A DNA stretch of 64,000 nucleotides. Origin: Candidatus Latescibacterota bacterium (lineage in GTDB: Bacteria > Latescibacterota > UBA2968 > UBA8231). The stretch spans positions 2,592,001 through 2,656,000 of the forward strand of contig OZ242005.1 in NCBI GenBank assembly GCA_965204725.1. Direction: 5' to 3'. A program made the position numbers and the translations under genes. The notes beneath the pieces are model-generated. The model had not been told where the DNA came from. It saw only the letters and a program-made list of their open reading frames with translations, and did no database searches. Positions 3 through 50,466 of the stretch are shown piece by piece. Each line of letters starts with the position of its first letter. The stretch's first letter is position 1.

Positions 3-623
3 GAGACCGGCTACGGCTACATCCGCCGCGGCCCGGTGCTGGCCGAGGTGCGCGGGACGCCGGTGTACGCCGTGGCCGAGTTTGCGGAAAAGCCCGCTGC
101 ACCACAGGCGACCGAGTACGCAGCCAGCGGCCACTACTTGTGGAATAGCAACACGTTTGTCTGGAAGGCGGCGACCGTGCTGGAGCTTTTCGCCCGCTTT
201 GAGCCAACCCTGTACGCCGGGTTGCAGCGCATCCAAGCAGCCGTTGGCACGCCGGAAGAGGACGCGGTCATCGCCCGCGAGTATCCACAACTCAAGCCGA
301 TCTCCATCGATCACGCCTTAGTCGAGCGCGCCCCCAAGGTGGCTACGCTGGCGGCGGACATTGACTGGGGCGACATCGGTTCTTGGGCCGCGCTGACGGA
401 TGTATTGCCGACGGATGCGGCGGGCAATTTGCTGGCGGGCGAGGTGGTGGCATTGGACGCGGCCCGTTCGACGGTGTACGGGCAAGGCGACAAGATCGTG
501 CTGCTATTGGGGGTGGAGGATTTGGTCGTGGTGGATACCCAAGACGCGCTGCTGGTGTGCGCCAAGGGGGCGGCGCAGCAGGTGAAAGACGCGGTGGCCC
601 GTCTCCAAGAGAAATATCGCTGA
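3..623 (+). CDS. manC: Mannose-1-phosphate guanylyltransferase, 5' end outside the window
   Basis: Frame open from the window start: ETGYGYI, FAEKP, YLWNS, ISIDHALVE, WGDIGSW, LVVVDTQDALLVC are ManC motifs. Confidence 0.9.
   Translation, partial: ETGYGYIRRGPVLAEVRGTPVYAVAEFAEKPAAPQATEYAASGHYLWNSNTFVWKAATVLELFARFEPTLYAGLQRIQAAVGTPEEDAVIAREYPQLKPISIDHALVERAPKVATLAADIDWGDIGSWAALTDVLPTDAAGNLLAGEVVALDAARSTVYGQGDKIVLLLGVEDLVVVDTQDALLVCAKGAAQQVKDAVARLQEKYR
406..620 (+). repeat. Intact manC 3' end; left copy of a degenerate direct repeat whose partner is 5731-5890
   Basis: Collinear shared blocks TGCCGACGGA.GCGGCGGGC, GAGGTGGTGGC.TTGGAC, GACAA.ATCGTGCTGCTA, GCTGCTGGTGTGCGC, GAAAGACGCGG, AAGAGAAATA.CGC. 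Confidence 0.85.
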
Positions 624-643
624 AAACCCGCCAAGTTGATTTT

Positions 644-919
644 TTAGCCCTGATTGGGGCTTATAGGTTGCGTAAAGCCAGTTAGCAAGGAAAAAATGAT
701 GAGACCCAAGATTGCGATCAATAAGTAGCAGCCGAGCATTCGCTTAAATGATCCCTGATACTCTCTATCAAAACGTTCAGCAAATGTCCCGTCTTTCTTG
801 TCGCCTGACATCGCTCTCATTGCCGCGCCTATACCTAACAGTAGAAAAAGGATCGCCACTGGTGGCAATGGTATTGTCGCGAAGGCGAGTATAACAAGAA
901 TGACAGCAAGGCATCCCAT
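644..919 (-). CDS. Small membrane protein (91 aa)
   Basis: GGAGG upstream of ATG; N-terminal hydrophobic hairpin and a C-terminal TM segment. Confidence 0.6.
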   Translation of the reverse strand: MGCLAVILVILAFATIPLPPVAILFLLLGIGAAMRAMSGDKKDGTFAERFDREYQGSFKRMLGCYLLIAILGLIIFSLLTGFTQPISPNQG

Positions 920-1011
920 TGATTTTCCTCCGAATTTTCGGAGCTATAGCAGTCCTAAATGACTCGAAAGCATGGAATGTTGATCGGCACGGTCTTTTTT
1001 GCCTATCAGGC

Positions 1012-1038
1012 GTCATTCCCGCGAACGCGGGAATCCAG
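1012..1038. repeat. dRS3/REP-like palindrome GTCATTCCCGCGAACGCGGGAATCCAG
   Basis: ATTCCC-N8-GGGAAT core at 1015-1034. Confidence 0.75.
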
Positions 1039-1075
1039 TCTTGAAGGATGTAGGATGGCTATATTTAACAAGGTA

Positions 1076-1903
1076 TCAGAACGCTTCATTCACCATCAGC
1101 TTGTAGAAACGCGCCTCCACGGCCCTCAAACGATCTTGATAGAGCTTTTTGTCCGTTGGGCCGGTTGAATCAAAAACTCTCACGAAAAACCGGCACTTTC
1201 TCGATTTAGACCACTCGAATAAGTCAGACGTTGAAGAAAGAAAAAGTTGTTCCGATACATCTTGATCCAAGACGATGTTTTGAATGGGTAGCGTCTGCCG
1301 TTCACTCGCTCGCTGCGGCAGGTCGGTCTCCCGCACGACTAGGCCAGCGGGCGTCAGGTTCACGTCGTATATGTATTCAATGGTTCCATCGTCGAGCGTC
1401 CAGCAGGATGGAACCTCGGTCCCTTTGCCGGCTGAGTATTCCTGCACCAGTTCCAATAGCTTTTCTACATTCCTCTCGCCAGCCGGTAGAAGCTCCCGAA
1501 TGGTTGAGTACTCACGTCCCATTTCTAGCGTGTTTATTATAGCTTCCGGTTCGGACAAAAAGCCAGCTTCCTCTGCGGTGCTGTGAAGCCTTTCAAGCTG
1601 TTGCTTTGCATCGCTGAGAAGTACCAATTCCCGCTGTAATTCCTCGATATTCTTACCGCCATCTGGCAGTATCTCTTGGATGGCGGCAAACTGCGCCTCA
1701 AGTTGTGCCTCAAGTAGGGTGATTGTTTCTTGCCGTTCCTCTGCGACGCGCTCGGCTTCCTTCTGCTTCTCTTGTTGGCGCACCAACAAGGCGGCAAAAG
1801 CGAGCAGTAGAACGAAGATGATGAGAATGGCGATCTCAGCCATGGTGAGGCCGAGAATAAGACCTCGTCGGTAGGCAGAGGTCTGCTTTCCAAGGGATGC
1901 CAT
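1076..1903 (-). CDS. MotB/ZorB-like single-TM protein with coiled coil and a non-OmpA C-terminal domain
   Basis: N-terminal GLTMAEIAILIIFVLLL TM with an intramembrane acidic residue; lies directly after a MotA-like gene; C-terminal PSCW...CRFFVRVFD. Confidence 0.6.
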   Translation of the reverse strand: MASLGKQTSAYRRGLILGLTMAEIAILIIFVLLLAFAALLVRQQEKQKEAERVAEERQETITLLEAQLEAQFAAIQEILPDGGKNIEELQRELVLLSDAKQQLERLHSTAEEAGFLSEPEAIINTLEMGREYSTIRELLPAGERNVEKLLELVQEYSAGKGTEVPSCWTLDDGTIEYIYDVNLTPAGLVVRETDLPQRASERQTLPIQNIVLDQDVSEQLFLSSTSDLFEWSKSRKCRFFVRVFDSTGPTDKKLYQDRLRAVEARFYKLMVNEAF

Positions 1904-1929
1904 ATTGATTTGTGTTCAGTCTCGCCTTG

Positions 1930-3195
1930 CTACTTCTCGTCTTTGTCTTGACGGGCTCGCCATTCGTCAAACCGCGTGTAACTAGCTTGTAGTTCTTGTT
2001 CGTTCGTGTTTGTCTCTGCGGATTGCGTCTCTTGTTGATCGGTTTTTCTATCTGCGGCTCGGAGTTTGGCTTGGTCGGTGTCGCTCATAAACTGCGCCGC
2101 CAGATCGGTCGTGCGAGGCGGAATAGCTTCCTTTTCAATCTGCTGGATCGGAACTTTCAGCAGCCGTTCGAGCAGGTCTTCGGGCACGTTCAGCCTGTTG
2201 ATCTTCTCAACAAGCTCTCCTATGCTGGCAGATACCTCGTTTGCAGCCTGTTGTAAACCTCGCTCTAATTCGTCGGTCGGAATCTGCACACTGTTGAGTC
2301 GATTCGCGAGTGCTTCTCCGGCTGCGCCAATTTGTTCGGCCCCCGCTTTAATCTGCTCGATCGGAACTTTCAGCAACTGTTCGAGTAGGTCTTCGGGCAC
2401 GTTCAGCCTGTTAATCTTCTCGACAAGTTCTCCTATGCTGGCAGATACTGCGTCCGAACTGACATTTATCACACCCACACTAGCAGACACCGCGTCCGAA
2501 CTAGCTTTTACTGCACTGTCGAGGTTTGATACTCGCTCATTGAGACCGGACACCGTATTGCCGAAACTGTCGAGGTTGGCTTGAAACTGCTCGCGACTTT
2601 CTTCAACGGTTTTGGTGAAGCGAGTAACTGATGCCTTGAATTGAGAAATAGCTTCCTTTTGTCTGTCGGAGCTCTCTCTAAGAATTTGCTCTAGCTCTAT
2701 TCTAAAAGTTGAAAACTTGCTTAGTTGATAATCAAGTTCGGATACTCTCTCGCTGAGATCGGATACCACATTGCCGAATTCGGATACCACATTGCCGAAT
2801 TTGGAGGTGGCTTCTTCTTCTGGGGATTCTTCAGATTGGTTAAATAAGACCCGGAAAATGATGCCAAATATCGTCGAAGCGATAGCGATGCCAAAATTCG
2901 TGATGATTTGGGTAATTTTTTCGCCAGATTCTTCACTGAGGGAAAATTCAAAAAGCGACACCCCCAAGCTGACGAGGGTATATAAAAACCCAAGGTAATA
3001 GAGGTTATCGCCGACTTTACCGAGTAGATGTTTCTGCTTGCGACAATACCAATAATACCCTGCATATATCAACATGATCGCAACGGGAAAGGCAGTCACG
3101 AAAACCTGATTCACATGGAGCTGCTTGAGAATTATAATCCCTACAGCTCCTATCAAGAAACATGCAAAGAGAATCTGTGAATCTCGTTTATCCAT
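1930..3195 (-). CDS. MotA/TolQ/ExbB (ZorA-like) channel protein with long repetitive helical tail
   Basis: Four TMs; GDNLYYLGFLYTL and NFGIAIASTIFGI resemble the two Thr-bearing channel helices; about 300-aa heptad-rich tail. Confidence 0.7.
   Translation of the reverse strand: MDKRDSQILFACFLIGAVGIIILKQLHVNQVFVTAFPVAIMLIYAGYYWYCRKQKHLLGKVGDNLYYLGFLYTLVSLGVSLFEFSLSEESGEKITQIITNFGIAIASTIFGIIFRVLFNQSEESPEEEATSKFGNVVSEFGNVVSDLSERVSELDYQLSKFSTFRIELEQILRESSDRQKEAISQFKASVTRFTKTVEESREQFQANLDSFGNTVSGLNERVSNLDSAVKASSDAVSASVGVINVSSDAVSASIGELVEKINRLNVPEDLLEQLLKVPIEQIKAGAEQIGAAGEALANRLNSVQIPTDELERGLQQAANEVSASIGELVEKINRLNVPEDLLERLLKVPIQQIEKEAIPPRTTDLAAQFMSDTDQAKLRAADRKTDQQETQSAETNTNEQELQASYTRFDEWRARQDKDEK
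2137..2448. repeat. In-frame 99-bp direct repeat (2137-2235 and 2350-2448) in the ZorA-like tail
   Basis: Encodes SASIGELVEKINRLNVPEDLLE.LLKVPI.QI twice, offset 213 bp. Confidence 0.9.
2759..2800. repeat. Perfect 21-bp tandem repeat, two copies (one heptad each)
   Basis: TCGGATACCACATTGCCGAAT twice; encodes FGNVVS(E/D). Confidence 0.9.
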
Positions 3196-4007
3196 CAGTC
3201 GTTCATCCCGGAGGTTCTAAGTACGCGTACTACTTGGCCTCCGTGCTGCGAGAGCCAAGATTGGAAGAATTTCAACGGAGGGCCGCCGTCTCCCTGCTGT
3301 CGTTGCCGCCGCTGAATGAGCCATAGTTCTATATCGACGCCCCGCAGATCGGGGTTTAGGCCGCGAGATTCATGGGTGTGCTGGAAGCGGTCGAAATCTG
3401 GCGGCTCCCGATAAAACGAACAGGCGGCACTATTCTGTAGAAGGTCTGAGATAATGATGAGACGCCGTGGGACCGTGCGACGTTTGGTGTCTTGGAAATG
3501 CGTTAGGGAAATCGACTGCACGGATTCCATAATGGGCGACGATGGTGCTTCCTTTTCGGCGAGCAGGGTTTGCAGTTCTTCTTCTAGAGGTTGCCGGAAT
3601 TTCTTCTGCCAGTTTCGACGAACTATTGCTTGGGATTGGACTAGCGGATCGACGTTTTCAGGGTCGCCGGGATTGCAGACCTTAATGATCGGATCGAGGC
3701 CGCGTTCTTGCGTGGATTCCACTGCAAAAAGGCTAATTTCGTGATTTTCTTTGGCCGTATCTAACAGGTTCTGGATTTGAACTTTCAGGTCGTTCTTGGT
3801 CTGAGCACCAAAGGAATCGGTGCGGTCGAGCAGAAGGGCCGTAATCGAATACGGCCCCTCGGTTCTGCAAAGGGTTTCGGGATCGCGGACGATGGGATCG
3901 GGTTTCAACAGTACTAGAGCAACTATAGCTACGAGAACTAGGGCCATCATCGTCCCACCGGCGATGTAGTACCACAGCCCGTCTGGTAGCCTATCTTTTA
4001 ATGACAT
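3195..4007 (-). CDS. Membrane-anchored vWA-like (MIDAS) protein
   Basis: N-terminal TM; LLLDRTDS (DxSxS-like), SSPIMES, LIIISDLLQNS; stop overlaps the start of the MotA-like gene. Confidence 0.65.
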   Translation of the reverse strand: MSLKDRLPDGLWYYIAGGTMMALVLVAIVALVLLKPDPIVRDPETLCRTEGPYSITALLLDRTDSFGAQTKNDLKVQIQNLLDTAKENHEISLFAVESTQERGLDPIIKVCNPGDPENVDPLVQSQAIVRRNWQKKFRQPLEEELQTLLAEKEAPSSPIMESVQSISLTHFQDTKRRTVPRRLIIISDLLQNSAACSFYREPPDFDRFQHTHESRGLNPDLRGVDIELWLIQRRQRQQGDGGPPLKFFQSWLSQHGGQVVRVLRTSGMND

Positions 4008-4056
4008 GAGCGATCTTTCCGCTTGTTTTTTCGTCTCGACATAATCGGCAGCTAGG

Positions 4057-5454
4057 CTATTCGGTTGGTGGTGGTAGGCGGTGCGGGGCCAATTCCCGCC
4101 ACTCCTTACTATTACGGACGCTATCGTACTTTTCTTTCAATTCCTCCGCGCCGTCCTTAACGCCTGCTCTCGTCTCAGCAATGATCTCTGAAATTTCTTC
4201 GCGTTTCAGCAAAGCCTCTGGCAAGGCACTGTCCATTGGCGATCGTTCTTCCAATTCCCATTTATCATTGAAGCGAGTAGGTGCTTCTCCGCCTCGGCTC
4301 GCACGGTTAACCTCTCGGTAGCGTTTGAGCAAATCGTCTCCTGCCCGCTCCAAGTGGTTGAGGTAGTCCTCGTGCGACTTGATAACGTGCCTATGTCCGT
4401 CCAAGATAGACACGCGGGCCGCCTCGAATCCCGTGAGTCTTTGCTCGATGCTGTTCAGTGTTTTGACCGCCTCATCAAATATCTTTTCTAGGTCTTTTTG
4501 ATGATTGTCATAAGCAGCTTGGTAGTCTTCATATTCACCCTGATAGCGATAGAACACCTTGCTATAACCGGGGTAGGGATCGCCAGCCAATTTTATGCCA
4601 TCGATAAAGCTAATAATTGCAAATAGGAAGCCCATGCAGAACAGCATCCATGACTGGAAGTCCCTTAATCCCAATGGATTCTCGCGAAAAGCAGACATGG
4701 CTAGCTGCCCGCCTTCGTCGAGCACGGTGCCCGTTATTTCTCGATAGTGTGCAACCATTAGGTTAAAGAAGAAGGCAAAGACTACAAATGCAACTGCGGC
4801 GAGGATGCCCACGGATTTTCTACGCCAGTCAATATGGTGACAGTAGGTAATAAGCCGCCTCCCGAGTAAGAAAGCGACCCCGAGATTGGCAAACGAAATA
4901 ACAATAGCTTCAGTATAGGCACCGAATAGCCCCAATTCGTTGCCCTTTGCCAGAAAGGACGCATTGCCCAAGGTCTCAATTAGAAAGAGCAGGGCGATAA
5001 TACCTGAAGCAAAAAACTTGTATGCCCCACTATTTTGCTTAATCGCCTCGCGATACAGGTCATTGTCCTTCTGAAACTTCGTCAAGCGATCTTCTGCTAT
5101 TTTTAACGCTCTTTTCTTCGATCGCAAATTCGTTTTAGCATTCTCGACCTTCTGTTCAAGTTTTACTTTACTATTGCGAATTTCTCCATCAACAGCACCA
5201 ATAGAGTGATTGCGGAATTCTGTGTTGAGTTTGATAAGACGCTTGCGGTATGCGTCTAGCTCTTCATCGCCTCTATCCTTTGCTTTTGACTGATATGTGC
5301 TGATCCGCCCGACAATCTTATTTTCGGTGTCGTCGAGGCTTGGATTGTCTAGCGCAGGCAATCCCCGTTTCGCTGCTGCTTCAGCCTCTTCTGTTAGATG
5401 CAGTTCTTCTGCTATCTTACTTACATCGACTTTCTCAAACAGGTCAGTTGGCAT
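4057..5454 (-). CDS. Multi-pass membrane protein flanked by long coiled coils
   Basis: GAGGAGG 8 nt before ATG 5454 (ORF track starts at GTG 5487); four central hydrophobic segments; charged helical ends. Confidence 0.75.
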   Translation of the reverse strand: MPTDLFEKVDVSKIAEELHLTEEAEAAAKRGLPALDNPSLDDTENKIVGRISTYQSKAKDRGDEELDAYRKRLIKLNTEFRNHSIGAVDGEIRNSKVKLEQKVENAKTNLRSKKRALKIAEDRLTKFQKDNDLYREAIKQNSGAYKFFASGIIALLFLIETLGNASFLAKGNELGLFGAYTEAIVISFANLGVAFLLGRRLITYCHHIDWRRKSVGILAAVAFVVFAFFFNLMVAHYREITGTVLDEGGQLAMSAFRENPLGLRDFQSWMLFCMGFLFAIISFIDGIKLAGDPYPGYSKVFYRYQGEYEDYQAAYDNHQKDLEKIFDEAVKTLNSIEQRLTGFEAARVSILDGHRHVIKSHEDYLNHLERAGDDLLKRYREVNRASRGGEAPTRFNDKWELEERSPMDSALPEALLKREEISEIIAETRAGVKDGAEELKEKYDSVRNSKEWRELAPHRLPPPTE

Positions 5455-5550
5455 CGCATGGTCCTCCTCATGGGTAAAATCAGTCACCTAGGGGCGTTTG
5501 ATCCACCAACGGGTATAAGAATGCAACGACCCAGCAGGGTGCCGGGCCAT

Positions 5551-5682
5551 GTAGCCATCTCACAGGTTTTTAGGAGAAGTTCTGCCTATTTGCCGGGCTT
5601 CAGGGAGCTACCCTGTGCCGAATAAAGGCTATTTTATTCAACAGATAACCCGACGGGGCGCGGGCACCTGTGATATGGCTAC
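5551..5682 (-). other. Candidate structured 5' leader or small RNA
   Basis: 17-bp inverted repeat (5551-5567 and 5666-5682, one mismatch) enclosing CAGGG/CCCTG and GAATAAA/TTTATTC hairpins. Confidence 0.45.
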
Positions 5683-5690
5683 GGGCAAGA

Positions 5691-5718
5691 AAGATATAGC
5701 GGTAATTTTTTCGGTCAA
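5691..5718 (-). promoter_or_regulatory. Putative sigma70 promoter of the cassette 1 operon
   Basis: TTGACC-16 nt-TATCTT on the minus strand. Confidence 0.45.
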
Positions 5719-5730
5719 CAAAAAAATCGC

Positions 5731-5890
5731 CTGCCGACGGACGCGGCGGGCGAGGTGGTGGCGTTGGACTCGGCCTTACGGGCAGGCCGACAAAATCGTG
5801 CTGCTACTGGACTTGGTGCTGCTGGTGTGCGCGAAAGGAGCGGACTCGCAAGCGAAAGACGCGGCGGAGCACCTCAAAGAGAAATACCGC
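5731..5890 (+). pseudogene. Decayed, displaced manC 3' end
   Basis: Translates in pieces to LPTDAAGEVVALD / YGQADKIVLLL / LLVCAKGA...KDA...LKEKYR, with internal deletions relative to 406-620. Confidence 0.85.
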
Positions 5891-5895: not shown

Positions 5896-6653
5896 TCACT
5901 CCACGTCGAGGATGTAGCGCGCCAGCGGCGAGAGCCGCTCGGCGGTTTCCGGCCGCAAATACGCACGCTGGTCGGTCTGCTGCGGGTGCTCGCGGGCGAT
6001 AAAGGCGCAGTGCAGGGTGCGGCGGGGACGGCTGCTGAGGTTGCGATACGAGCCGTGCCAGAGGCTGCCATTAAACACGGCCACCGAGCCAGCGCGGCCC
6101 GTCAGATGAACCTGCTCTGGATGGTCAGCCAAACGATCGGCCAAATGGTCGGCTACCCTGCCGGATTGGCGGTGGCTGCCCGGGACGCAGCGAGTCGCGC
6201 CGTTGGCTTGGGTGAAATCGTCGAGCATCCACATGGAGTTGACCACGTGATACGGCCCGCCGGGCACAGTGGGCCGCCCCAATCCGCATGCAGGGCCTGT
6301 AAGCCGTGGCCGGGCAGTGGATCGTGCCCGTTGAGCGAGTGCAGCTTAAACGGCCGCTGCAACAGGTGGAAGACCGCCGTCAGCAGCACCGGCTGTAGGT
6401 ACACCGCGTCAAAGACAGGCCCCTTGTTGACCAGATCGGCGAGGCGGCGCACACCCTCCATTTGGGCTACCTCCGCACCGGCCCGGTCGCCCTCGCGGGC
6501 AAAAATCGCGTCAAAAGCACGGCGCAACTCGGCCAGCCAGTCGGGGCCGATGACCCCTTCCAAGACGATGAAGCCGTGGGTGTCTAGCGCACTGCATTGC
6601 GCGGGAGTCAGCGGCTGAGGGACGAATCCCCGTTGCAGTAATTCGCGGTCCAT
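5896..6653 (-). pseudogene. PhyH-family Fe(II)/2-oxoglutarate dioxygenase with a frameshift (pseudogene or sequencing error)
   Basis: HGFIVLEGV and ALHADW in one frame; VNSMWMLDDFTQANGATRCVPGSH and SLWHG in another; frame switch at the G-run near 6277-6281. Confidence 0.75.
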
Positions 6654-6657
6654 TGGC

Positions 6658-7821
6658 TTAGCGACCGGCGCGGCGGGCGAATTCACACAGGGCGGTCACG
6701 CCGCGGCGGATGTGCTCTTCTGAGGCGGCGATGGAGACGCGCACGTGGTCGCGGCACGTCTGGCCAAAGGTGCTGCCCGGCGCCACAGCCACGCGCTGCT
6801 CGTTGAGGAGCCGGACAGCGAATTCGCCAGAGTCCATGCCCGCCGCGGCGATGTCGATCATGAGGTAAATCGCGCCGCCCGGGGTATAGCGGTACAAGCC
6901 ATATTCTCTCAGGACATCAAGGGCCAAGTCGCGGCGGTGCTTATAGCTGCGGCGCATCTCGGCCACGTCATCTTGCGGGCCATTGAGCGCGTCGGCGGCC
7001 GCGAGCTGGGAAAAGCCCGTGCCGCACGAGACAAAAGGCTCTTGCAGCTTGGCGGCCAGTTCGATGTACTCGGGCTGGGCGCGGGTAAAGCCCACTCGGT
7101 AGCCGGTCATGGCGTAGCTTTTGGACATGCCGGAGACCACGATGGCGCGTCCGTCAGCGTCGTAGGGCAGGGCGCTTTGATGCGGTTGGTCAAAGACGAT
7201 CTGGCCGTAGATCTCGTCGGACAGCACCCACAAATCGCGGCGCTGGGCCCAGTGCATAAGCTGGCGCATGAGCGTCTCGTCGTACACTTGGCCGGTGGGA
7301 TTGGAGGGCGTACAGAGGAGGAGGAGTTTGGTGCGGGGGCTGACGAGGCGATCCATCTCGTCGAGGTCGGGCAGAAAGTGGTTTTCCGCCCGCAGCTTGT
7401 AAAAGACGGGTTGGCCGTGGGCCATGGAGACCGCCATCTCGTAGTTGGGCCAGCCCGGATCGGGCAACAGGGCCTCGTCGCCCGGTTCGAGCAGGGCCAG
7501 AAAAGCGGTCGCCACGCTCATGACGGCCCCGGGGGTGACGAGGATGTTTTCCTCGGTGGTCGGCACGCCGGTGCTGCGCTCGAAGTAGCGAGCTGCGGCC
7601 GCGCGCAACGCATCGACGCCGGCATTGGGGATGTACTTGGTGTGGCCGGCGCGCACGTAGCGGCAGGTGGCTTCGACAATGGGCGCGGGCGTGGCAAAAT
7701 CGGGTTGGCCTACTTCGAGGTGAATGACCTCGCCCGTTTTCTCAATGTCCCAAGCCAGTTCCATGATCTCGCGGATGCCCGAGCGAGGAATCGACGCGGC
7801 GATGCGGGCGAAAGGCTTCAT
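6658..7821 (-). CDS. PLP-dependent class I/II aminotransferase (aspartate aminotransferase-like)
   Basis: GQPDF, PSNPTG, SDEIY, SKSYAMTGYRVG. Confidence 0.9.
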   Translation of the reverse strand: MKPFARIAASIPRSGIREIMELAWDIEKTGEVIHLEVGQPDFATPAPIVEATCRYVRAGHTKYIPNAGVDALRAAAARYFERSTGVPTTEENILVTPGAVMSVATAFLALLEPGDEALLPDPGWPNYEMAVSMAHGQPVFYKLRAENHFLPDLDEMDRLVSPRTKLLLLCTPSNPTGQVYDETLMRQLMHWAQRRDLWVLSDEIYGQIVFDQPHQSALPYDADGRAIVVSGMSKSYAMTGYRVGFTRAQPEYIELAAKLQEPFVSCGTGFSQLAAADALNGPQDDVAEMRRSYKHRRDLALDVLREYGLYRYTPGGAIYLMIDIAAAGMDSGEFAVRLLNEQRVAVAPGSTFGQTCRDHVRVSIAASEEHIRRGVTALCEFARRAGR

Positions 7822-8703: not shown

Positions 8704-11106
8704 CTATTTGCGCTCGGCGATTTTGCAGACCCAGATGCTGATTTCGTACAGCAGGAGCAAGGGCAGGGCCATTAGGATCTGGGAGACCGGGTCCGGCGGC
8801 GTGAAGATCGCGCCGAGGACGAAGATGCCGATGATGGCATAGCGGCGGATATGGCGCATCCGCGCCGCAGTCAGCACCCCGACCTTGGCCAAAAAGAGCG
8901 ACAGCACGGGCATTTCAAAGACGATGCCAAAACCCGCTATGAGCCGCAGCACAAAGCCGATGTACTCGTCGGCTGCCCATTGCGAGGTCATGTCGGGCGG
9001 CTCGAGCGAGAGGAAAAAGCGCAGCCCGAGCGGGAGGACGATGGAGTAGGCAATCAGCGCCCCGACCGCGAAGCAGAAAACGCTCAGCGAGATAATGGGC
9101 ACCATGAGTTGTTTCTCGCGCTGCAAAAGCCCCGGCGCCACAAAGCGCCAAGTTTGGTAAAAGACGACCGGCAGCGCGAGCAACAGCCCACCGACAAAGG
9201 CGATTTGCAGGCTGATGAAAAAGTAAGTCATGGGCCGCAGGGCTTGCAGTCGGCGCGTCGGCGGCAGGTCGGCGGGGGGCGCGTCCGGTTGGGGCGCAGC
9301 ATCGGACAGGCCCAACCACTGGCGCACCAGTTGTTCGACGGCCCGCACCGCGCCCGCGGATTGCTGGCTCTCCAAGCTGAAGACGGCTTCTTCGTACGGC
9401 CGGGTCAAGATCTGCATGATCGAGTCGGAGAAGGCGAAGCAGAGTACCGCGCCCACAGTGAGCGCGCCGAGGGCCTTGAGAATGCGCCAGCGGAGTTCTT
9501 CGAGGTGGTCGAGAAAGGGCATGTTGGCTTCCCGGGGCGGGTCTGGCGGGTCTGGTTCGGGGCGAGCGTCTGCTTCTGCGGGTTCGGGGGCCTTGCGGAA
9601 GAGGGCGACGAACGCGCCCAAGGCGATTAGCAGGCAGCCGTAGGCAAAGAGGTCGCCGTGCCGCGTGTAAAAGGTCGTCGGCTGGCCGACCGGCACCGTC
9701 GCGACCGCAACCGCCGGCGCGAAGAGGTCGGTCGCCTCGTAGGTGCGGCCAAACGGGTCGATGAACAGGGAAATGCCGGTGGTGGCTGCGCGGGCGATGG
9801 CCGTGCGGTTTTCAACGGCGCGCATGGCGTTGATGAGCGCGTGTTGGTAAGGGCCGGCGCTGCGGCCGAACCACGAGTCATTGGTGATGTTGACCAGCAC
9901 CCGCGCCCCAGCCGCCACGTGCTGGCGCACTAACGCGGGAAAGATGGACTCAAAGCAGATAAGCACGGCAAAGGGGTGCCGAGGATGGGCAAAAATCGCG
10001 TGTTCCGTGCCGCGCGCGAATTCGGCCGGGCCGAGGTCGCCGGTCAGGCGGGTCCAGTCGATGTCGCGCAGCAGGGGGATGGCGTCTCGATAGGGCGTCC
10101 GCTCGCCAAAGGGCACCAAGTGCATCTTGGCGTACCAAGGCAGGGCAGTGGCCTCGGGCTCGACGAAGAAGGCCGCGTTGTACTGGGCGTGCGGCGCGCC
10201 GGTGAGCACGGGAATGTCCAGTTCCTCGACGAGTGCTTGGACGCGGCCTCGGCAATCGGCTCGGCGTACGGGGTCGCACGGCAGGGCGGTTTCGGGCCAG
10301 ACCAGCAGCTCGGGATCGCGCTTGGCCGCTTGGCGCGAGAGGGTGGCGAGGGCCGAGAAACTGCGCTCCAGCCCGTTTGGACCCCACTTGTCGGCGTAGG
10401 TGGTGTTCGGTTGGATCAGGCCGATGCGCAGGCCCTCGGCCGGGACGGCCGCTGCTAGGGCGCTCTGCGCGTGGAGCCAAGGCAAGAGATAGCCCAAGGC
10501 AACGCCCCCGAGAAAGACTCGGCGCTCAACGAGTGCCAAATAGAACAGCGCGTTGAGACCGACGACCCAGCAGGAGACGCCAAAGACCCCGGTTGCGGTG
10601 GCGTATTGGATGAAATGGGGCAGGGCCGCTTGGCTGTGCCCCAGCAAGAGCCAAGGAAACCCCAACTCCCCGAGCGAGAGCGCATACTCCTGCCCGGTCC
10701 ACAACAAGGGCAGCAGCGCGAGGGCCTTGGTGCCCCACCGCACGGCGAGCACGTTGAACAGCCCAGTGCAAAGGCCGGTAAAAAGGCCCAAATAAGCGGC
10801 CATCAGCCCGGTGCCCGCGACGACGGCCGGGCCTCCGCCTTGGGTATAGGCCACCCAGTACAGGGACAGCAGGTTCCAGACCAAACCGCTGATCCAGCCC
10901 ATGGCCAAGCCGGCTTTGAAGCCGCGATCTTTCAGGGCCAGCAGCAAAGGCACCAAGGCACCATGGGCCCAGAGCGGATGATAGAGAACGGCGAGCGGGT
11001 GATCCGGGTGGTTGGGAAAGGCCAGCGAGAGCAAGGCCCCGCTTAGTGCAGCGAGCAGCAGGCGGTGCAGCGAGGTTGGGGCTAGGACCAAGCGCGGGTT
11101 AGACAT
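8704..11106 (-). CDS. lnt-tatC: Apolipoprotein N-acyltransferase fused to Tat translocase TatC
   Basis: Single 800-aa ORF: GFPW, WPETA, KMHLVPFGE, ICFESIF, NDSWFG (Lnt), Pro-rich linker, then MPFLDHLEELR, FEMP, FTPPDPVSQ (TatC). Confidence 0.9.
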   Translation of the reverse strand: MSNPRLVLAPTSLHRLLLAALSGALLSLAFPNHPDHPLAVLYHPLWAHGALVPLLLALKDRGFKAGLAMGWISGLVWNLLSLYWVAYTQGGGPAVVAGTGLMAAYLGLFTGLCTGLFNVLAVRWGTKALALLPLLWTGQEYALSLGELGFPWLLLGHSQAALPHFIQYATATGVFGVSCWVVGLNALFYLALVERRVFLGGVALGYLLPWLHAQSALAAAVPAEGLRIGLIQPNTTYADKWGPNGLERSFSALATLSRQAAKRDPELLVWPETALPCDPVRRADCRGRVQALVEELDIPVLTGAPHAQYNAAFFVEPEATALPWYAKMHLVPFGERTPYRDAIPLLRDIDWTRLTGDLGPAEFARGTEHAIFAHPRHPFAVLICFESIFPALVRQHVAAGARVLVNITNDSWFGRSAGPYQHALINAMRAVENRTAIARAATTGISLFIDPFGRTYEATDLFAPAVAVATVPVGQPTTFYTRHGDLFAYGCLLIALGAFVALFRKAPEPAEADARPEPDPPDPPREANMPFLDHLEELRWRILKALGALTVGAVLCFAFSDSIMQILTRPYEEAVFSLESQQSAGAVRAVEQLVRQWLGLSDAAPQPDAPPADLPPTRRLQALRPMTYFFISLQIAFVGGLLLALPVVFYQTWRFVAPGLLQREKQLMVPIISLSVFCFAVGALIAYSIVLPLGLRFFLSLEPPDMTSQWAADEYIGFVLRLIAGFGIVFEMPVLSLFLAKVGVLTAARMRHIRRYAIIGIFVLGAIFTPPDPVSQILMALPLLLLYEISIWVCKIAERK

Positions 11107-12833: not shown

Positions 12834-12852
12834 ATGCAACTGCCTGCCGTCG

Positions 12853-14751
12853 TCAGCCCGTGCGTCGTTTTGATCGTCCTTGGGTATGGGCGTGGAGGAA
12901 GACCATTAGCGAGGAGAGGTCGGCCGGCGAGACCCCGGAAATGCGCGATGCCTGTCCTAGGGTCTGTGGGCGAATCGCCGCGAGCTTTTGGCGCGCTTCG
13001 GTCGAAATGTTCAGCCCGGGAGCGGCGAAGTCAAAATCGGTCGGCAGGCGCAGGGATTCGAGGCGCTTGAGCTTTTGCGCTTGGGTTTCTTGGCGCTTGA
13101 TGTACCCCGCGTATTTGATCTCGGCTTCGACGTGTTCGGCCGCATCCGGGGCGAGAGGCTGTGGCGGCGGGGCAAATTCGCAGAGGTGGTCGTAGTTGAG
13201 TTGGGGGCGGCGCAGCAACTCGGCGAGCGAGGTTGATTCGGTGATGGGAGCCGTGTCCTGCCGCGCCAAGACCTCTCGCACCTTCTCGGTCGGTTTGACG
13301 CGCTCGTGCCGCAGGCGTTCGCGCTCGGCTTTGACCTGTTGCTGCTTGGTCTGGAACCGACGCCACAGGTCGTCGCCGATCAACCCCAGTGCTCGGCCCT
13401 TGGCCATCAGCCGATCGTCGGCGTTGTCCTCGCGCAAGAGCAGGCGATGCTCGGCCCGCGAGGTGAAGATGCGGTACGGCTCGAGCGTACCTTTGGTCAC
13501 TAAGTCGTCAATTAGGACGCCGATGTAGGCATCGGCGCGGGTGAGGACCAGCGGGTCGTCGCCGCGCGCCTTGAGCACGGCGTTGATGCCCGCCATAATC
13601 CCTTGGGCCGCGGCTTCTTCGTAGCCAGTGGTGCCGTTGATCTGGCCGGCGAAGAACAAATTGGCCACGCGCTTGGTCTCTAGGTGCGGGTAGAGTTGGG
13701 TCGGCGGGGCGTAATCGTATTCGACCGCGTAGGCCGGGCGCATGATCTCAGCCCGTTCGAGACCGGGCAGGGAGCGCACGATCGGGGTTTGCAGGGCCTC
13801 CGGCAGGCTCATCGACAGGCCATTGAGATAAAACTCAAGGGTGCGACGCCCTTCTGGCTCGACGAAAACTTGGTGCCGCTCCTTGTCGGCAAAGCGCGCA
13901 ATTTTGTCCTCTATGGAGGGGCAGTAGCGCGGGCCGATGCCTTCGATGCGCCCGCTGTACATGGCCGAGTGCGACAGGTTGGCTCGGACGATCTCGTGGG
14001 TGTGGGCATGGGTGTAGGTGATCCAGCAGGGCATTTGCGGCTGGACAATTTTTTCCACCGCATAGGAAAAGGGGCGCGGGGGATCATCTCCGGGCTGTTC
14101 CTCAAACGCGGCAAAGTCGAGTGTGCGGCCGTTGACGCGGGGGGGGGTGCCCGTTTTGAGCCGGCCGGTCTCAAAACCGAGCGCGACCAAGCCTTCGGCG
14201 GCCTTTTCAGCGGCGGTCTCGCCAGCGCGACCTGCGCTATAAGAAAAATCGCCGACGTGGATCTTGCCGCGGAGGAAGGTGCCGGTCGTCAGAATGACGG
14301 TGCGCCCTCGGTAGGCAATGCCGCCCTTGACGCCAATGCCTTGGACGGCCCCTTCCTCAATCAGCAAGCGCTCCATCAGACCTTGGCGGATGTCGAGATG
14401 CGCTTGCTGTTCGCAGGCGTACTTCAGCTCAAATTGGTAATCCTTTTTGTCGGCTTGCGCCCGCGAGGCGCGCACGGCCGGCCCACGCGAGGTGTTGAGG
14501 CGGCGGAACTGAATGCCGGTGCGGTCGATATTGACGGCCATCTGGCCGCCGAGCGCGTCGATTTCCTTGACGATGTGCCCCTTGCCGATCCCGCCGATAG
14601 CCGGGTTGCAGGATAGCTGGCCAATCGTGTCCAAGTTCATGGTCAGGAGCAAGGTCTCGGCTCCCATGCGCGCGGCGGCGAGCGCGGCCTCCGTGCCGGC
14701 GTGGCCGCCACCGACGACGATGACTTGGTACGCTTTCTCGTAGAAAATCAC
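12853..14751 (-). CDS. mnmG: tRNA uridine-5-carboxymethylaminomethyl synthesis enzyme MnmG
   Basis: [49 protein letters not shown]; GTG start overlaps the upstream stop. Confidence 0.97.
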
Positions 14752-16086: not shown

Positions 16087-16148
16087 TAAGATATGAGAGA
16101 CATCTTTATCGCGGGATAGCGAAAGCGCATTATCTATCATTTATTGTG

Positions 16149-46487: not shown

Positions 46488-46494
46488 GGCTTGG

Positions 46495-48387
46495 TTAGAC
46501 CGAGGCCGCGGTCAGGTTACAGGGCATGGGTTTGAATTGGCAACCCTCGACGAAGAGTTCAAAAAAGTCGGGGGTCGTCTCCAACTCGACATGCTCAATG
46601 CGCTTGGCCAGCGCTTCGATGCGGGCGCGTTTGCCAGCCGAGAGCAGCACTTCGCGCGCCCCTTGGACAGCGGCATTGCCCACCTTGGCGATTTGCGCTG
46701 GGGGTACGGGGGCCAAAAAGCCGATGTCAATGGCGGCTTGGACATCGACAAAGTTGGCAAAGCCGCCGGCGAGATAGAGCTGTTGCACGTCGCCCGGCGC
46801 GAGGCCCAAGGTCCGCAAGACGATGTACTGACCGCAGAAGTTGGCGGCTTTGGCTTGGGCTAGGTTTGAAGCGTCGAGGCGCGAGAAGGTGATGCCGCGC
46901 TCGGGGACGAGCTCAAACTGGCGCTTTTTGTCGGCAAAGACGCCCTTGGGGGTCATTAAGTCGTGGCGGCGCAACTCGGCGAGGAGGTCAATTAGCCCGG
47001 AGCCGCACAGCCCGGCCGGCGCGGTGTTGCCAATGGTTTTCCACTGCCAGCGCGCACCGTCCCAGCGGATGGATTCAATGGCTCCGTCGCACCCGGGCAT
47101 CCCATAGGTGATGCCGCCGCCCTCAAAGGCCGGGCCGGCCGGGCAAGAGGCCGCGACGAGACGGCCTTGGTGCGCGACGACGACTTCGGTGTTGGTCCCC
47201 ACATCGACCAGCATCGCGCTCTCACTGGAAAGGTCCATATCAACGGCGACTAGGTCGGCGGCCACGTCCGCGCCGACGTGGCTGGCGATTAGCGGTAGCG
47301 AGTACGCCCGCGCTTTGGGATTGGCCTTCAGACCGAGGCGGCGGGTCTTTTCGACTAGGCTGGTCGCGGTGCGCTCGCCGCTTAGATATGCGTGCTCAAT
47401 GCGCGACTTGTAGGGCTTTTGGCCAATGCTCTGCACGTCGAGGCGGAAGAGGATGTCGCGCATCGTCGAGTTGCCGGCGACCGCGATCTCGTAAATCTCC
47501 TGCCGCACAAAGCCGCCGCGCCGGCAGAGGCCCTCGATCTCGTGGTTAAGGGCCTTGACCAAGGCTTGGCGCAATTCGCCGGGGTGTTGCCCGTCGTAGG
47601 AAATGCGGTGCATGATGTCGCTGCCGCCAAAGCGCTGTGGGTTTTCAAACGCGCTCAAATGCACGCTCTCACCCGTCTCTAAATCGACTAGGTCGAGGAC
47701 AATGGTGGTGGTGCCCAAGTCAATGGCGAGGCCGTAGAGATGGCCGCGGTATTGGTCGATTTCCTCGTCGCCGTAGTAGATGGCTTGCCCGCGCCGCTGG
47801 ACTATCGGGTCGATCTCGGCGGGCCGCTCAACGGTTTGGGTTAGAATCCGGGGCGTGCGAAAAAGCGGTGCAAACTCGATATCCACATCGGCGTCTGCGA
47901 CTTGGGCTTGGCAGGCGAGCCGGAACTCGCCGCGGAGGAAGTCCTCGGCCGGCGTGGGCGCGTTGAGGGCCTGTGCCCCGCTTGTGACCTCGACGATGCA
48001 CTCGTGGCAGTGGCCCGTGCGCCCGCAGGAGGTCGGCACTCGCGCACCGAGTTGATCGGCGTAGTCGAAGAGGGTGCCGCCGGTCGATAGTGGGTACGAG
48101 GTGCCGTCGCAGCGGATGTGCCCGCGGCCGGTTGCGGCCGGGCGTTGAGCCGACTCCCAAGCCGAGCGATAGTCGAGCTGGTCGTCGCCGCCGCACTGGA
48201 ACAGCCCGCCCGGGTTTTGCGGCTTGCGCTGATTGCGGCAGCCAAAGTGGGCGGTGCATTGGTCAAAGCGGTTCTTGTACGGGCAGCGGAAGGTCGCCTG
48301 TTCGTCGGCATGGGTGGCGATGCCGGCGAGGATGCCCGACAGGCGGTCGAGACGCTTTTGGTATTCTTGGGGGTCGATTTGGGTCAT
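46495..48387 (-). CDS. ASKHA-family reductive activator of corrinoid proteins (RACo/RamA-like) with 2Fe-2S domain
   Basis: CGRTGHCHEC...RLACQ, AIDLGTTT, DVGTNTE, AGPAFEG, GLCGSG, LAGGF. Confidence 0.9.
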   Translation of the reverse strand: MTQIDPQEYQKRLDRLSGILAGIATHADEQATFRCPYKNRFDQCTAHFGCRNQRKPQNPGGLFQCGGDDQLDYRSAWESAQRPAATGRGHIRCDGTSYPLSTGGTLFDYADQLGARVPTSCGRTGHCHECIVEVTSGAQALNAPTPAEDFLRGEFRLACQAQVADADVDIEFAPLFRTPRILTQTVERPAEIDPIVQRRGQAIYYGDEEIDQYRGHLYGLAIDLGTTTIVLDLVDLETGESVHLSAFENPQRFGGSDIMHRISYDGQHPGELRQALVKALNHEIEGLCRRGGFVRQEIYEIAVAGNSTMRDILFRLDVQSIGQKPYKSRIEHAYLSGERTATSLVEKTRRLGLKANPKARAYSLPLIASHVGADVAADLVAVDMDLSSESAMLVDVGTNTEVVVAHQGRLVAASCPAGPAFEGGGITYGMPGCDGAIESIRWDGARWQWKTIGNTAPAGLCGSGLIDLLAELRRHDLMTPKGVFADKKRQFELVPERGITFSRLDASNLAQAKAANFCGQYIVLRTLGLAPGDVQQLYLAGGFANFVDVQAAIDIGFLAPVPPAQIAKVGNAAVQGAREVLLSAGKRARIEALAKRIEHVELETTPDFFELFVEGCQFKPMPCNLTAASV

Positions 48388-48399
48388 GGACAGGCGTCG

Positions 48400-48726
48400 T
48401 TATCGCTCAGCAGTGCATTGTGGCAATGGCTCGATCTGAGCCAGTTCGTCTCGATATTGCTGCTCCAACTCCCAAATATCTCTGGCGTGTTGGGCCTTCA
48501 GCCAAAACTCAGGAGAGTTCCCGAACAAACGGGATAGTTTCAAGGCCATGATGGACGAAATAGCGCACTGCTCTTGCAAAAGTTCGCGGACGGTCTGTCG
48601 AGATTCACCCAACTCAGCGGCCAAAGAGTCTGCCGTTAGTGTGTAGTCGGGAAGAAAATCTTCTCTTAGCATCGCCCCAGGATGCGTGGGCGGGATGGTG
48701 CGTTTTTGAGCATTCGCAATAGCCAT
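48400..48726 (-). CDS. higA: HigA-family antitoxin (XRE HTH), orphan
   Basis: PTHPGAMLREDFL, MALKLSRLFGNSPEFWL.AQ. Confidence 0.88.
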   Translation of the reverse strand: MAIANAQKRTIPPTHPGAMLREDFLPDYTLTADSLAAELGESRQTVRELLQEQCAISSIMALKLSRLFGNSPEFWLKAQHARDIWELEQQYRDELAQIEPLPQCTAER

Positions 48727-48759
48727 TCGTCTGTATAGATCCGTTGGAGTTCCTTTGAC

Positions 48760-49125
48760 TCAGGCCATTTGATTTTTTTTGGGCGCGACCGATCGCGGCG
48801 ATAAAACCAAGGATATTCGATGTAAAAGCTCATGTAGCTCTTCGGCGATCTCTGGATGTGGATTTTGATTGAGGGCTTGGGTTGCGATCTCCTTAGCCTT
48901 TTGCGGCTGGTTACAGTCCAATGCAAGCGTCGCAGCACTGCGGTGTAGCACCGAGTTCGTCGGCTCGATTCGTCCCTCTACTTCTAATTGAGCGATCGCC
49001 GCAAGTTCGTATTCCAATGCTTGCACAAAAAATTCATGTGCCTGTGCTCGCTGGCCTTGGATACGCGCTACAAAAGCGCGTTCGGCAAACTCCATAGCCT
49101 TATTGTGGAAATCGCGAACATTCAT
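48760..49125 (-). CDS. Small all-helical (TPR-like) hypothetical protein
   Basis: HNKAMEFAE, ALEYELAA, VLHRSAATLALDC; ATGA overlap with the upstream gene. Confidence 0.75.
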   Translation of the reverse strand: MNVRDFHNKAMEFAERAFVARIQGQRAQAHEFFVQALEYELAAIAQLEVEGRIEPTNSVLHRSAATLALDCNQPQKAKEIATQALNQNPHPEIAEELHELLHRISLVLSPRSVAPKKNQMA

Positions 49126-49637
49126 TTTTTCTGCACCTCAGCAAGGGGTCGTCCAAACTCAACTACGATTACGTACGCTGGTAATAGCCCGTCAGATCGG
49201 TCTGTTTGTCTTAGCTTCTGCCTCATTCTCGCTTGCACATCGCGGTCACTACCCTTGCGAATCCCCGATATTTCCAGCCGAGCTTCGTGCTGAAAAGGGG
49301 CATCTGTCCCTTCGCCCATCCAGTAGTCAAAGCCAGTACCTTTCCACGAACGCTCGAGCACTGTATAACCGATCTCCTTCTTCACCAGTAAAACCGCAAT
49401 ACCCACCGCACCGTGTTCAGTGGCAATCTCATGGTCATTCCAACACCTGCGGGTTTGTTCCGTAATTATAGGCCATGTCAAGGAATAGCTTTTATAGCTA
49501 TATCCTCGGACGCTAAGTTGGACACCTTGCGCGTGGCCTTGTGACTCCAAACATACGCCTCCGGCCTCTGCCAGTGCCATGCCAAAGCTCGGCGTGATAG
49601 CCGGAAGGCCATTACCAAGATCGTTCAAATCTAGCAT
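49122..49637 (-). CDS. Putative PD-(D/E)XK nuclease-fold protein
   Basis: ATEHGA...KGTGFDYW...ARLEISG...K..Q...YVIVVEF. Confidence 0.6.
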   Translation of the reverse strand: MLDLNDLGNGLPAITPSFGMALAEAGGVCLESQGHAQGVQLSVRGYSYKSYSLTWPIITEQTRRCWNDHEIATEHGAVGIAVLLVKKEIGYTVLERSWKGTGFDYWMGEGTDAPFQHEARLEISGIRKGSDRDVQARMRQKLRQTDRSDGLLPAYVIVVEFGRPLAEVQKK

Positions 49638-49710
49638 AACTGAGATTGTGGTTCTCTACTTTAGCAGTTCCTTTTGAGTCATAGGAGGCTGGGCGCATTA
49701 GCGGGGTGCG

Positions 49711-50466
49711 CTACTCGTCCGCAACTTCGCTCAGCAATTCCTTGGCCAAGGACACGCAGGCGAGGGCGTCCTTGCCGTAGCCGTCGGCGCCCATGTCGTC
49801 GGCAAATTCTTGGGTCACAGGCGCGCCGCCGACCATGATTTTGACGTCGTCGCGCAAGTCGGCGTCGATGAAAGCCTCAATGGTCTTGCCCATGTTGGGC
49901 ATGGTGGTGGTCAACAGGGCCGACATGCCCAAGAGCGGCGCTTCGTGCTCTTCGACCGAGTCGATGAACTCGTCTTCGGAGGTATCGACGCCGAGGTCGT
50001 GGACGACAAAGCCGGCCCCGCGCAGCATCATAATGCACAAGTTTTTGCCGATGTCGTGCAGATCGCCCTTGACCGTGCCCATGATCACAATGCCGATGGG
50101 CTCGACGCCCGAGGCCGAGAGAATCGGCTCGATGTGAGCCATGCCGGCCTTCATGGCGCGGGCGCAGGCGAGCACTTCGGGAACGAAGATGAAGTTTTCG
50201 CGGAATTTGATGCCGACGATGGCCATGCCAGCAATCAGCCCGTCGTCCATGACTTCGAGGGCCTCCACGCCCGCGGCAATGGCTTGGCCGGTCAGCTCGT
50301 CAACCGTTTGGTGGTTGCCGTCGATGAGCGCGGCGGCGATATCCTGCATCGGTTCGCTCGCTTGGGCGAATAGATTGGTTATGCGCTCGCGCTCTTCGTC
50401 GCGCTCGATGAACTCCTCGATCTCGGCGCGGATAAATTCGTTGGCGATGTCGGTAAGGTCTGCCAT
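49711..50466 (-). CDS. Cobalamin-binding corrinoid protein
   Basis: FVPEVL, GTVKGDLHDIGKN, SALLTTTM, MVGGAP. Confidence 0.93.
   Translation of the reverse strand: MADLTDIANEFIRAEIEEFIERDEERERITNLFAQASEPMQDIAAALIDGNHQTVDELTGQAIAAGVEALEVMDDGLIAGMAIVGIKFRENFIFVPEVLACARAMKAGMAHIEPILSASGVEPIGIVIMGTVKGDLHDIGKNLCIMMLRGAGFVVHDLGVDTSEDEFIDSVEEHEAPLLGMSALLTTTMPNMGKTIEAFIDADLRDDVKIMVGGAPVTQEFADDMGADGYGKDALACVSLAKELLSEVADE

Follow-up and report, generated by a model that had tools for sequence, protein, structure and literature searches.

We analysed a 64,000-nucleotide stretch of the genome of Candidatus Latescibacterota bacterium (assembly GCA_965204725.1, contig OZ242005.1, positions 2,592,001-2,656,000, forward strand), hereafter the window, which holds three islands of low guanine-plus-cytosine (GC) content (0.44-0.53, compared with 0.58-0.68 in the flanks). 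A first-pass annotation of this sequence described the islands as three cassettes with one architecture, each inserted at the 3' end of a host gene whose original tail now lies on the far side of the cassette. We find that cassette 1, next to manC, and cassette 2, next to an esterase gene, are insertions into gene 3' ends that are bracketed by duplicated target sequence and have empty sites in relatives. For cassette 3, next to a corrinoid-protein gene, this architecture is not supported. A comparison of the whole 64 kb with itself returned just two direct-repeat pairs spaced 0.4-15 kb apart, and these are the pairs that bracket cassettes 1 and 2. The repeats have no sequence in common with one another, as had been remarked in the annotation.

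For comparison, we scanned genome contigs with the methyltransferase-family protein encoded next to cassette 2 and recovered 26 related loci from Latescibacterota-type metagenome-assembled genomes. These loci (L001 to L026) have protein identities of 75-94% and an unchanged gene order from a pterin-binding gene to manC. The set spans the sites of cassettes 1 and 2, and none of the loci reaches the site of cassette 3.

Cassette 2 gives an esterase gene a new end

The esterase gene (23448-24338, minus strand) encodes an alpha/beta hydrolase of the PHB-depolymerase-like type, 296 residues long from MRKRR to its present end ...EWLLGA*. The final LGA and stop codon (23448-23460, minus strand) are supplied by cassette 2, a 7.4-kb island (16087-23460, minus strand; GC 0.44-0.52) that encodes proteins of 2006 residues (17204-23224) and 352 residues (16149-17207). 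Directly before this new end, within the esterase reading frame (QRLLEWL), lies one copy of a perfect 22-bp repeat (23461-23482, minus strand). The other copy (16065-16086) begins a displaced esterase tail (16031-16086, minus strand) and is followed there by 34 bases that encode ...FSGSCADTLS and a stop. Read through to its stop (16031-16033), the displaced frame gives ...EWLFSGSCADTLS*, and this stop adjoins the ATG (16028-16030) of a homocysteine S-methyltransferase-family gene (15026-16030, minus strand; Pfam S-methyl_trans), the original downstream neighbour of the esterase. The repeat, AGCCATTCGAGCAAGCGTTGGC, occurs exactly twice in the window even when up to 3 mismatches are allowed, and none of 100 shuffled sequences contained any match. 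Likewise, the alignment of the two cassette boundaries scores 45, compared with a maximum of 25 among 2000 shuffles. The 22-bp repeat and the displaced stop abutting the next ATG had both been noted from the letters, and both are confirmed.

The displaced piece at 16031-16086 predicts what the tail of an uninterrupted esterase should look like. At 22 of the 26 loci the esterase is uninterrupted, ends in ...EWLFS(D/G)SRADTLS* and has the methyltransferase gene directly next to it; these loci therefore match the prediction. Both repeat copies of the window align to one and the same sequence at the 22 empty loci, with an overlap of 20-26 bp. One further locus, L013 on a 5.7-kb contig, is occupied at the same nucleotide and carries a homologue of the 352-residue protein with 89% identity. 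The remaining three (L007, L023 and L025) have no esterase. These three include the two outgroup loci, and the esterase may be an older addition to the row of genes because it is absent from relatives that include both.

The short end produced by the insertion is also visible in protein records. Among the 21 closest clusters of esterase homologues, 18 have the long native tail and 3 have a short LLG(A/S) tail, and all four occupied alleles (those of the window and of proteins P0128, P0125 and P0123) end in WLLG(A/S). The nearest esterase allele is an empty one for both the window (96.5% identity) and P0128 (97.2%), and for P0125 and P0123 the nearest place is shared by an empty and an occupied allele (96.8% and 94.0%). 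On the tree of the loci, the sister of the window, L005, is empty (support 100/100), and L013 falls in another clade among empty loci. Cassette 2 is 91% identical between the window and L013, with flanks at 89-91%. In the window the flanks match the sister lineage right up to the repeat, and the repeat copy of L013 has 4 differences in 22 positions that are typical of its own host lineage.

Cassette 1 leaves an intact and a decayed manC tail

At the left end of the window, manC (3-623, plus strand; Pfam NTP_transferase and ManC_GMP_beta-helix) encodes a mannose-1-phosphate guanylyltransferase and is truncated by the window start. Its last 215 bases before the stop codon (copy A, 406-620, plus strand) are intact and are followed by a TGA stop at 621-623. 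The 5.1-kb island of cassette 1 (624-5731; GC 0.46-0.53) comes next, with five open reading frames (ORFs) on the minus strand at 4057-5487 (476 residues), 3195-4007 (270), 1930-3195 (421), 1076-1903 (275) and 644-919 (91). Beyond it lies a decayed tail (copy B, 5732-5890, plus strand), frameshifted and without its stop, which abuts a convergent PhyH gene. The first-pass annotation had recognised an intact manC end at 406-620 and a decayed one at 5731-5890. Our alignment agrees, with 137 of 158 aligned bases identical and with four deletions in copy B, whose reading frame is lost. The annotation's further remark that the repeats differ in decay also holds, as cassette 1 is more decayed than cassette 2.

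Two relatives extend to this site, one of each form. In L007 a single intact manC tail converges on the PhyH gene, which makes this an empty site, and both window copies align to that single tail with an overlap of 188 bp. In L011 a related cassette is present, followed by a less decayed remnant that has the same first 15-bp deletion as in the window. Over the stretch of cassette that the L011 locus shows, identity to the window is 75%, compared with 83% in the flank. Close homologues of the 476-residue protein are encoded in the genomes of L011 (68%) and L015 (64%), and none appears among the matches listed from the genomes of L005, L008, L022, L001, L003 and L006.

Two side observations belong to this site. 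The gene for the PhyH-family dioxygenase (5896-6686, minus strand) is split over two frames in the window and runs in one frame in L007 and L011, so the split reflects either a frameshift or a sequencing error. Within the non-coding leader of cassette 1, a 17-base inverted repeat (5551-5567 and 5666-5682) is 94% complementary with its arms 98 bases apart, and a related word also occurs at 1049-1064.

The annotation held that each host gene stays intact through a new tail. The esterase is no longer whole: it received a new end in which 3 residues stand in place of 13 native ones (296 residues compared with 303). For manC, nothing marks the intact end as new. Identity to L007, the one comparator that covers the gene, is 89% for copy A, 84% for the upstream part of manC and 87% for copy B; given these values, neither tail copy appears foreign. 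We considered copy A as foreign sequence and discarded the idea, as the identity comparison to L007 gave no signal for it.

These comparisons bear on a strict form of homology-facilitated illegitimate recombination, in which a linear fragment from a relative would anchor in manC or the esterase and its far end would be joined upstream of the recipient's own tail. Such recombination is usually described with loss of recipient DNA and not with duplication, which counts against it here. In its favour, copy A departs from copy B at several positions where copy B agrees with L007 and L011, and the arrangement of a functional tail by the gene body and an orphaned tail by the old neighbour resembles the orphaned 3' regions of type VI secretion system (T6SS) and Rhs loci as portrayed in PMC5361080. 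However, copy A does not stand out as foreign against the rest of manC, both flanks of cassette 2 are of the sister-lineage type up to the repeat so that no donor anchor is visible, and one-sided anchoring leaves unexplained the two perfect 42-bp copies that flank an insertion in L022 (described below). We regard this explanation as very unlikely.

Cassette 3 is best read as a different kind of insertion

Cassette 3 (48388-49710, minus strand; 1.3 kb, GC about 0.50) lies between the stop of a corrinoid-protein gene (49711-50466, minus strand; Pfam B12-binding) and the start of the RACo (corrinoid activation) gene (46495-48387, minus strand; Pfam RACo_C_ter and Raco_middle). Its ORFs, all on the minus strand, are at 49122-49637 (171 residues), 48760-49125 (121) and 48400-48726 (108; a HigA-family antitoxin). 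The annotation had read a 10-bp repeat here as the mark of a displaced corrinoid-protein tail that overlaps the RACo ATG. The letters are indeed present: TCGCTCAGCA occurs at 48403-48412 and 49727-49736 without a change of frame, and downstream the frame closes with an ATGA that overlaps the start of RACo. The reading as tail replacement is not borne out. A 10-mer match of this quality between the boundary windows is reached in 3.4% of shuffles, and 2 of 100 window shuffles contain the 10-mer twice. The copy at 48403-48412 sits, in a different frame, within the last codons of the HigA-like ORF. Empty sites with the predicted tails, which the annotation had proposed as a check, exist for cassettes 1 and 2; the tail predicted for cassette 3, ...LLSDNDACP, is found in none of the best 120 corrinoid-protein homologues, and cassette 3 thereby does not pass the refuting test set in the annotation itself. 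By comparison, 42 of these 120 have an xExxDE ending like that of the present, native-type tail ...LLSEVADE*, with 15 of them ending in SEIADE.

The residues after (D/E)LL (window 49711-49736; proteins P0001-P0120) are highly variable among close relatives, with endings such as SEIADE, EEQ, DEE, SEP and NEDI among others, and SEVADE and EEQ are both represented in a set of proteins most of which share 96-100% identity with the corrinoid protein of the window. Because these residues vary so widely, differences in the tail need no insertion to explain them. An alternative repeat across the RACo start (ATGACYCAAA) was rejected as not significant (p = 0.12). Cassette 3 is thus best read as the plain insertion of a HigA-type three-gene module between the corrinoid-protein gene and RACo, apparently with neither a supported repeat nor a replaced tail. 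Of the shared architecture claimed for all three cassettes, what stands is the part that concerns the first two. The third illustrates that an ATGA overlap combined with a short repeat can be misleading.

That the 10-bp repeat lies within chance raises the question of whether all the junctions might be chance or assembly artefacts, with low-GC segments mis-joined at short common words. For cassettes 1 and 2 this is extremely improbable: the same junctions appear in independent assemblies of other species (L011 and L013), the 22-mer and the 215-bp duplicate are far outside shuffled controls, and the short esterase end is also present in protein records from other sources.

The same architecture with other cargo in relatives

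We searched for target duplications by comparing the 26 loci and the window pairwise and recording insertions whose two flanks overlap on the reference. The architecture recurs beyond the window with different cargo, in keeping with the general route that the annotation had inferred. In the first example, a type II restriction-modification (R-M) pair of 2.2 kb (GC 0.40-0.43) lies between convergent MnmG and nuclease genes in four species (L002 13166-15359, L010 13139-15486, L015 13139-15383 and L018 13145-15287). N6/N4 methylase and NotI-like nuclease domains were found by scanning in L002 and L010, and the pairs in L015 and L018 were identified by alignment. The target overlap has a median of 18 bp in L002, is a diverged repeat of about 30 bp in L010 as judged by eye, and is not detectable in L015 or L018. 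Three of the four carriers have an empty sister on the tree (L002 with L012, L015 with L011 and L010 with L026), and the position of L018 is unsettled. The R-M cassettes are 86-89% identical to one another, compared with 91-94% for the flanks. As a side observation, remnants of a duplicated terminator flank the R-M pair in L002 and L010.

In the second example, a hicA/hicB toxin-antitoxin pair (L022 18385-19286) is flanked on each side by a perfect 42-bp copy of the intergenic sequence native to the site. Both copies have one base in common that four examined empty sites lack. In-place duplication is expected to give this pattern. The hicAB insertion has the look of a similar event that happened recently.

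The MnmG gene itself also differs in the window. It ends in a 45-base segment (12834-12878; tail ...GRSKRRTG*) that is absent in most relatives and has matches directly ahead of the R-M island of L015 and L018 and of a different insert in L021. The segment resembles the left boundary of an island that has lost its cargo. We also considered it as a degraded duplicate of the MnmG terminator and found no support for this (p = 0.63). Other kinds of insertion are found in the clade as well. True insertion sequences with DDE transposases occur in relatives, and two small inserts with toxin-like cargo (L006 2506-3915 and L019 1410-1926) have no flanking duplication; a weakly matching ADP-ribosyltransferase domain of the Tse2-like type is encoded in one and a HicB antitoxin in the other.

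No mobility functions were found in the cassettes

All three cassettes (5.1, 7.4 and 1.3 kb) are below 20 kb and have no mobility genes in or beside them. We searched the ten cassette ORFs against Pfam, NCBIfam and PADLOC and found no recombinase or transposase domain, in line with the annotation's view that none is encoded. A scan for hidden recombinase fragments in 95 of the 113 stop-to-stop frames of at least 50 residues that overlap the cassettes returned no relevant family; the other 18 frames lay mainly in flanking host genes. The non-coding gaps within the cassettes are at most 244 bp, and consequently there is no room for the remnant of an integrase gene. No terminal inverted repeats were found at the cassette ends, no tRNA or tmRNA targets were found, and no Rfam family was detected in the window. 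The cassettes thus differ from transposons and insertion sequences, having neither terminal inverted repeats nor a transposase that we could find.

Islands integrated at gene 3' ends by an integrase form a general class, together with integrase-less elements that are cis-mobilisable or behave as satellites. The cassettes could be islands of this type whose integrase was lost or never present and whose movement depends on a tyrosine or serine recombinase from a gene outside the element. The repeats would then serve as attachment sites, and the new end of the gene would come from the element. Several features recall such islands: direct repeats at a gene 3' end, a new end supplied by the element, use of the same site across genomes and putative defence-type cargo. 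Cassette 2 is the one that resembles an attachment core, with a perfect 22-bp repeat, a sharp boundary and the same junction in L013 and three further esterase alleles. This identical junction in at least two species and four esterase allele lineages, with empty alleles nearest or tied for nearest, speaks for this explanation, as does the slightly lower divergence of cassette 2 than of its flanks at third codon positions. In addition, the module of cassette 1 lies about 1 kb from a gene annotated as "recombinase family protein" on a Microvirga plasmid.

Unlike integrase-type islands, the cassettes have no integrase in or next to them and no tRNA target, and their repeats, 22-215 bp long, are unrelated. 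Integrase, transposase and resolvase domains are missing from the cassette ORFs and from the alternative frames scanned, and the non-coding space is insufficient for the remnant of such a gene. Repeats that differ both in sequence and in length (22, 42 and about 215 bp) would call for several different recombinases. At 215 bp, the manC duplicate far exceeds the usual core, with neither copy detectably foreign, and the base that both 42-bp copies in L022 have and four empty sites lack is what in-place duplication predicts. On balance, we consider integrase-type islands an unlikely explanation.

Cargo of the cassettes

Homologues of the 476-, 270- and 421-residue proteins of cassette 1 are encoded in the same order on the Microvirga plasmid (E = 2e-55, 2e-32 and 9e-25), and the 275-residue gene has a match of 22 residues there (E = 5e-4). 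No cassette 1 ORF matches a Pfam family above its cut-off, and matches to ZorA and ZorB are below threshold. For instance, ZorA_1 scores 17.7 bits compared with a cut-off of 190, and the PADLOC ZorA and ZorB matches (E = 6e-5 to 1e-4) cover partial profiles. Based on its predicted structure (predicted local distance difference test score, pLDDT, 92.5), the 476-residue protein would be an all-helical membrane and coiled-coil protein without a solved look-alike, as a fold search returned generic coiled-coil matches with template-modelling (TM) scores of about 0.1-0.2.

For the 2006-residue protein of cassette 2, there are weak P-loop matches at residues 1321-1478 (AAA_16 at 20.1 bits, cut-off 32.6). 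In the protein atlas it falls among clusters of proteins of about 1900-2000 residues, in which 24-35% of members have AAA_22, and a sequence comparison with solved structures gave nothing meaningful. The 352-residue protein (pLDDT 95) resembles AAA+ clamp-loader subunits at low TM-scores of 0.26-0.36 and belongs to a large unnamed family with 802 representatives at E of at most 0.001. The genes for these two proteins are also adjacent on a Salinibacter plasmid. In cassette 3, the 108-residue ORF scores 83.8 bits on TIGR02607 (HigA; cut-off 47.7), no HigB-like partner was found for it, and profile searches gave no family match for the 171- and 121-residue ORFs. No R-M domain was found in the three cassettes with Pfam, NCBIfam or PADLOC. 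A defence role for the cargo of all three, as assumed in the annotation, is plausible.

The window holds further features apart from the cassettes. A mild GC dip holds the gene of a 226-residue NucS-like protein (53133-53813, minus strand), for which the PADLOC match is to the candidate defence family PDC-S11 (E = 8e-66); the 64-kb self-comparison detected no flanking repeat at this gene. An 800-residue ORF (8704-11106, minus strand) fuses Lnt (apolipoprotein N-acyltransferase) domains to TatC and is present at full length in 21 of the 26 loci. Near the window end, a 12-base unit (GATCCCTTGCTC) is repeated in tandem about ten times at 63767-63934.

Origin and age of the insertions

The target sequences of cassettes 1 and 2 are duplicated, each cassette has a junction in common with its occupied relative, no recombinase domain was found, and cassette divergence is equal to or greater than that of the host. 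Given one junction type per cassette and divergence at or above the host level, we propose that these are single old events kept as presence/absence alleles: cassettes 1 and 2 would each descend from one insertion that duplicated the target stretch, after which occupied and empty forms co-existed. We hold this view with moderate confidence. Such old alleles fit the data better than an active element does, and the same two observations speak against the recurrent arrival that the annotation had put forward.

How the duplication first arose, and whether cassettes are lost or gained through the repeats, we infer as follows. Foreign DNA would enter once and duplicate its target, which for cassette 1 would be about 215 bp spanning the manC stop and for cassette 2 would be 22 bp lying 33 bases ahead of the esterase stop. 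Where the duplicated stretch includes the stop codon, as in manC, the upstream copy leaves the gene complete and the downstream copy is the one that decays. Where it does not, as in the esterase, the gene reads into the cassette and gains a short new end. Occupied and empty forms would then co-exist across the species of the clade. The flanking repeats would permit exact loss by homologous recombination of the host, with no cassette recombinase needed; through them alleles may also be exchanged, or a circle that has looped out may enter again. The host-type flanks that extend to the repeat, and the nesting of occupied among empty loci, fit exact loss, allele exchange and re-entry within the repeat alike.

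A number of points weigh against this proposal. At third codon positions, cassette 2 of the window and L013 is 86% identical compared with 78% in the flanks, and this lower divergence leaves room for later horizontal spread. The 22-bp repeat is shorter than the 30-bp limit that PMC2853133, a survey of R-M insertions, uses for excluding site-specific recombination, and 22 bp is a typical length for the core of an attachment site. An identical junction in unrelated lineages is equally expected from a site-specific recombinase acting in trans, and for the 22-bp case such a recombinase is possible. The cargo in the window is not R-M, whereas the hypothesis set out in that survey (PMC2853133) tied the class to DNA breakage by R-M enzymes. 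Many other insertions in the clade are free of mobility genes and have no flanking duplication, and hence duplication is not the sole route of insertion. Finally, the manC site is reached by only two of the 26 loci, the DNA-level comparisons of empty and occupied sites are between species (the 26 loci and the window) and not within one population, and the tree is built from 3.1 kb of flanking genes with unsettled bootstrap values.

A more far-reaching idea is that a cassette together with one copy of the duplicated host segment forms a minimal mobile unit able to move without its own recombinase. Host recombination would loop out such a unit as a circle and leave a perfect empty site, and the circle could then enter any relative with the same conserved gene end by a single crossover. 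We think this improbable. If true, it would explain the identical junctions in separate lineages, the host-type flanks that continue up to the repeat and the existence of defence islands without mobility genes. It would also make the process independent of cargo, be it NTPase, membrane-module, R-M or toxin-antitoxin genes, and not driven by restriction enzymes as has been proposed.

Relation to known systems

Insertion with long target duplication is a class of event reportedly first recognised by Nobusato et al. in 2000. In the systematic survey of Furuta et al. (2010; PMC2853133), it is described for R-M systems, with repeats that in many cases extend across a start or stop codon, which preserves the target gene, and with insertion into operon-like rows of genes. 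The survey proposes a link to DNA breakage by the R-M enzyme and a cycle of invasion, amplification and release (PMC2853133). The architecture of cassettes 1 and 2 matches this class, so the route, though poorly understood, is not new.

The likeness to the class as laid out in PMC2853133 covers several features. The cargo is accessory and below 20 kb, and both direct repeats correspond to one stretch of sequence where a relative has the empty site. Mobility genes are missing, the repeats differ in length between cases, and they often span a stop or start such that the target survives. Insertions occur in operon-like rows, and in relatives of the window R-M cargo is inserted in this way. Unlike the systems of the survey, the window carries a pair of genes with a giant putative P-loop NTPase and a five-gene module of the membrane or coiled-coil type, and one relative carries hicAB inserted in like manner. 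Measured by the survey's criterion of a duplication above 30 bp (PMC2853133), cassette 1 with about 215 bp lies above, cassette 2 with 22 bp lies below and cassette 3 has 10 bp, which is within chance. The survey compared strains (PMC2853133), whereas here the occupied form is common to species and has diverged at the host level, in a host from an uncultured phylum.

A second parallel is found in toxin and effector genes. According to the portion of PMC5361080 that deals with these loci, the 3' regions of T6SS, Rhs and contact-dependent growth inhibition (CDI) genes are displaced and left as orphaned remnants, which is ascribed to homology-facilitated illegitimate recombination. As at those loci, a new module lies by the conserved upstream part, the old 3' end is orphaned downstream and no integrase is known to be involved (PMC5361080). 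The T6SS, Rhs and CDI loci replace the variable functional end of a gene with another of the same family; in the window the cargo is unrelated to the host gene, and the orphan is the duplicated tail of a housekeeping gene.

Surveys of defence islands report many islands without an identifiable means of movement; in the data given for E. coli hotspots in PMC10121019, for example, one hotspot has no detectable mobile element in 68% of cases. Here, the target-duplication signature of R-M systems brackets other accessory cargo, in an uncultured phylum, with both empty and occupied forms across species. Given that the signature brackets cargo other than R-M systems, our findings suggest that the mechanism is independent of restriction enzymes, and the repeats of 22, 42 and 215 bp provide concrete constructs with which recombinase-free loss and gain may be tested.

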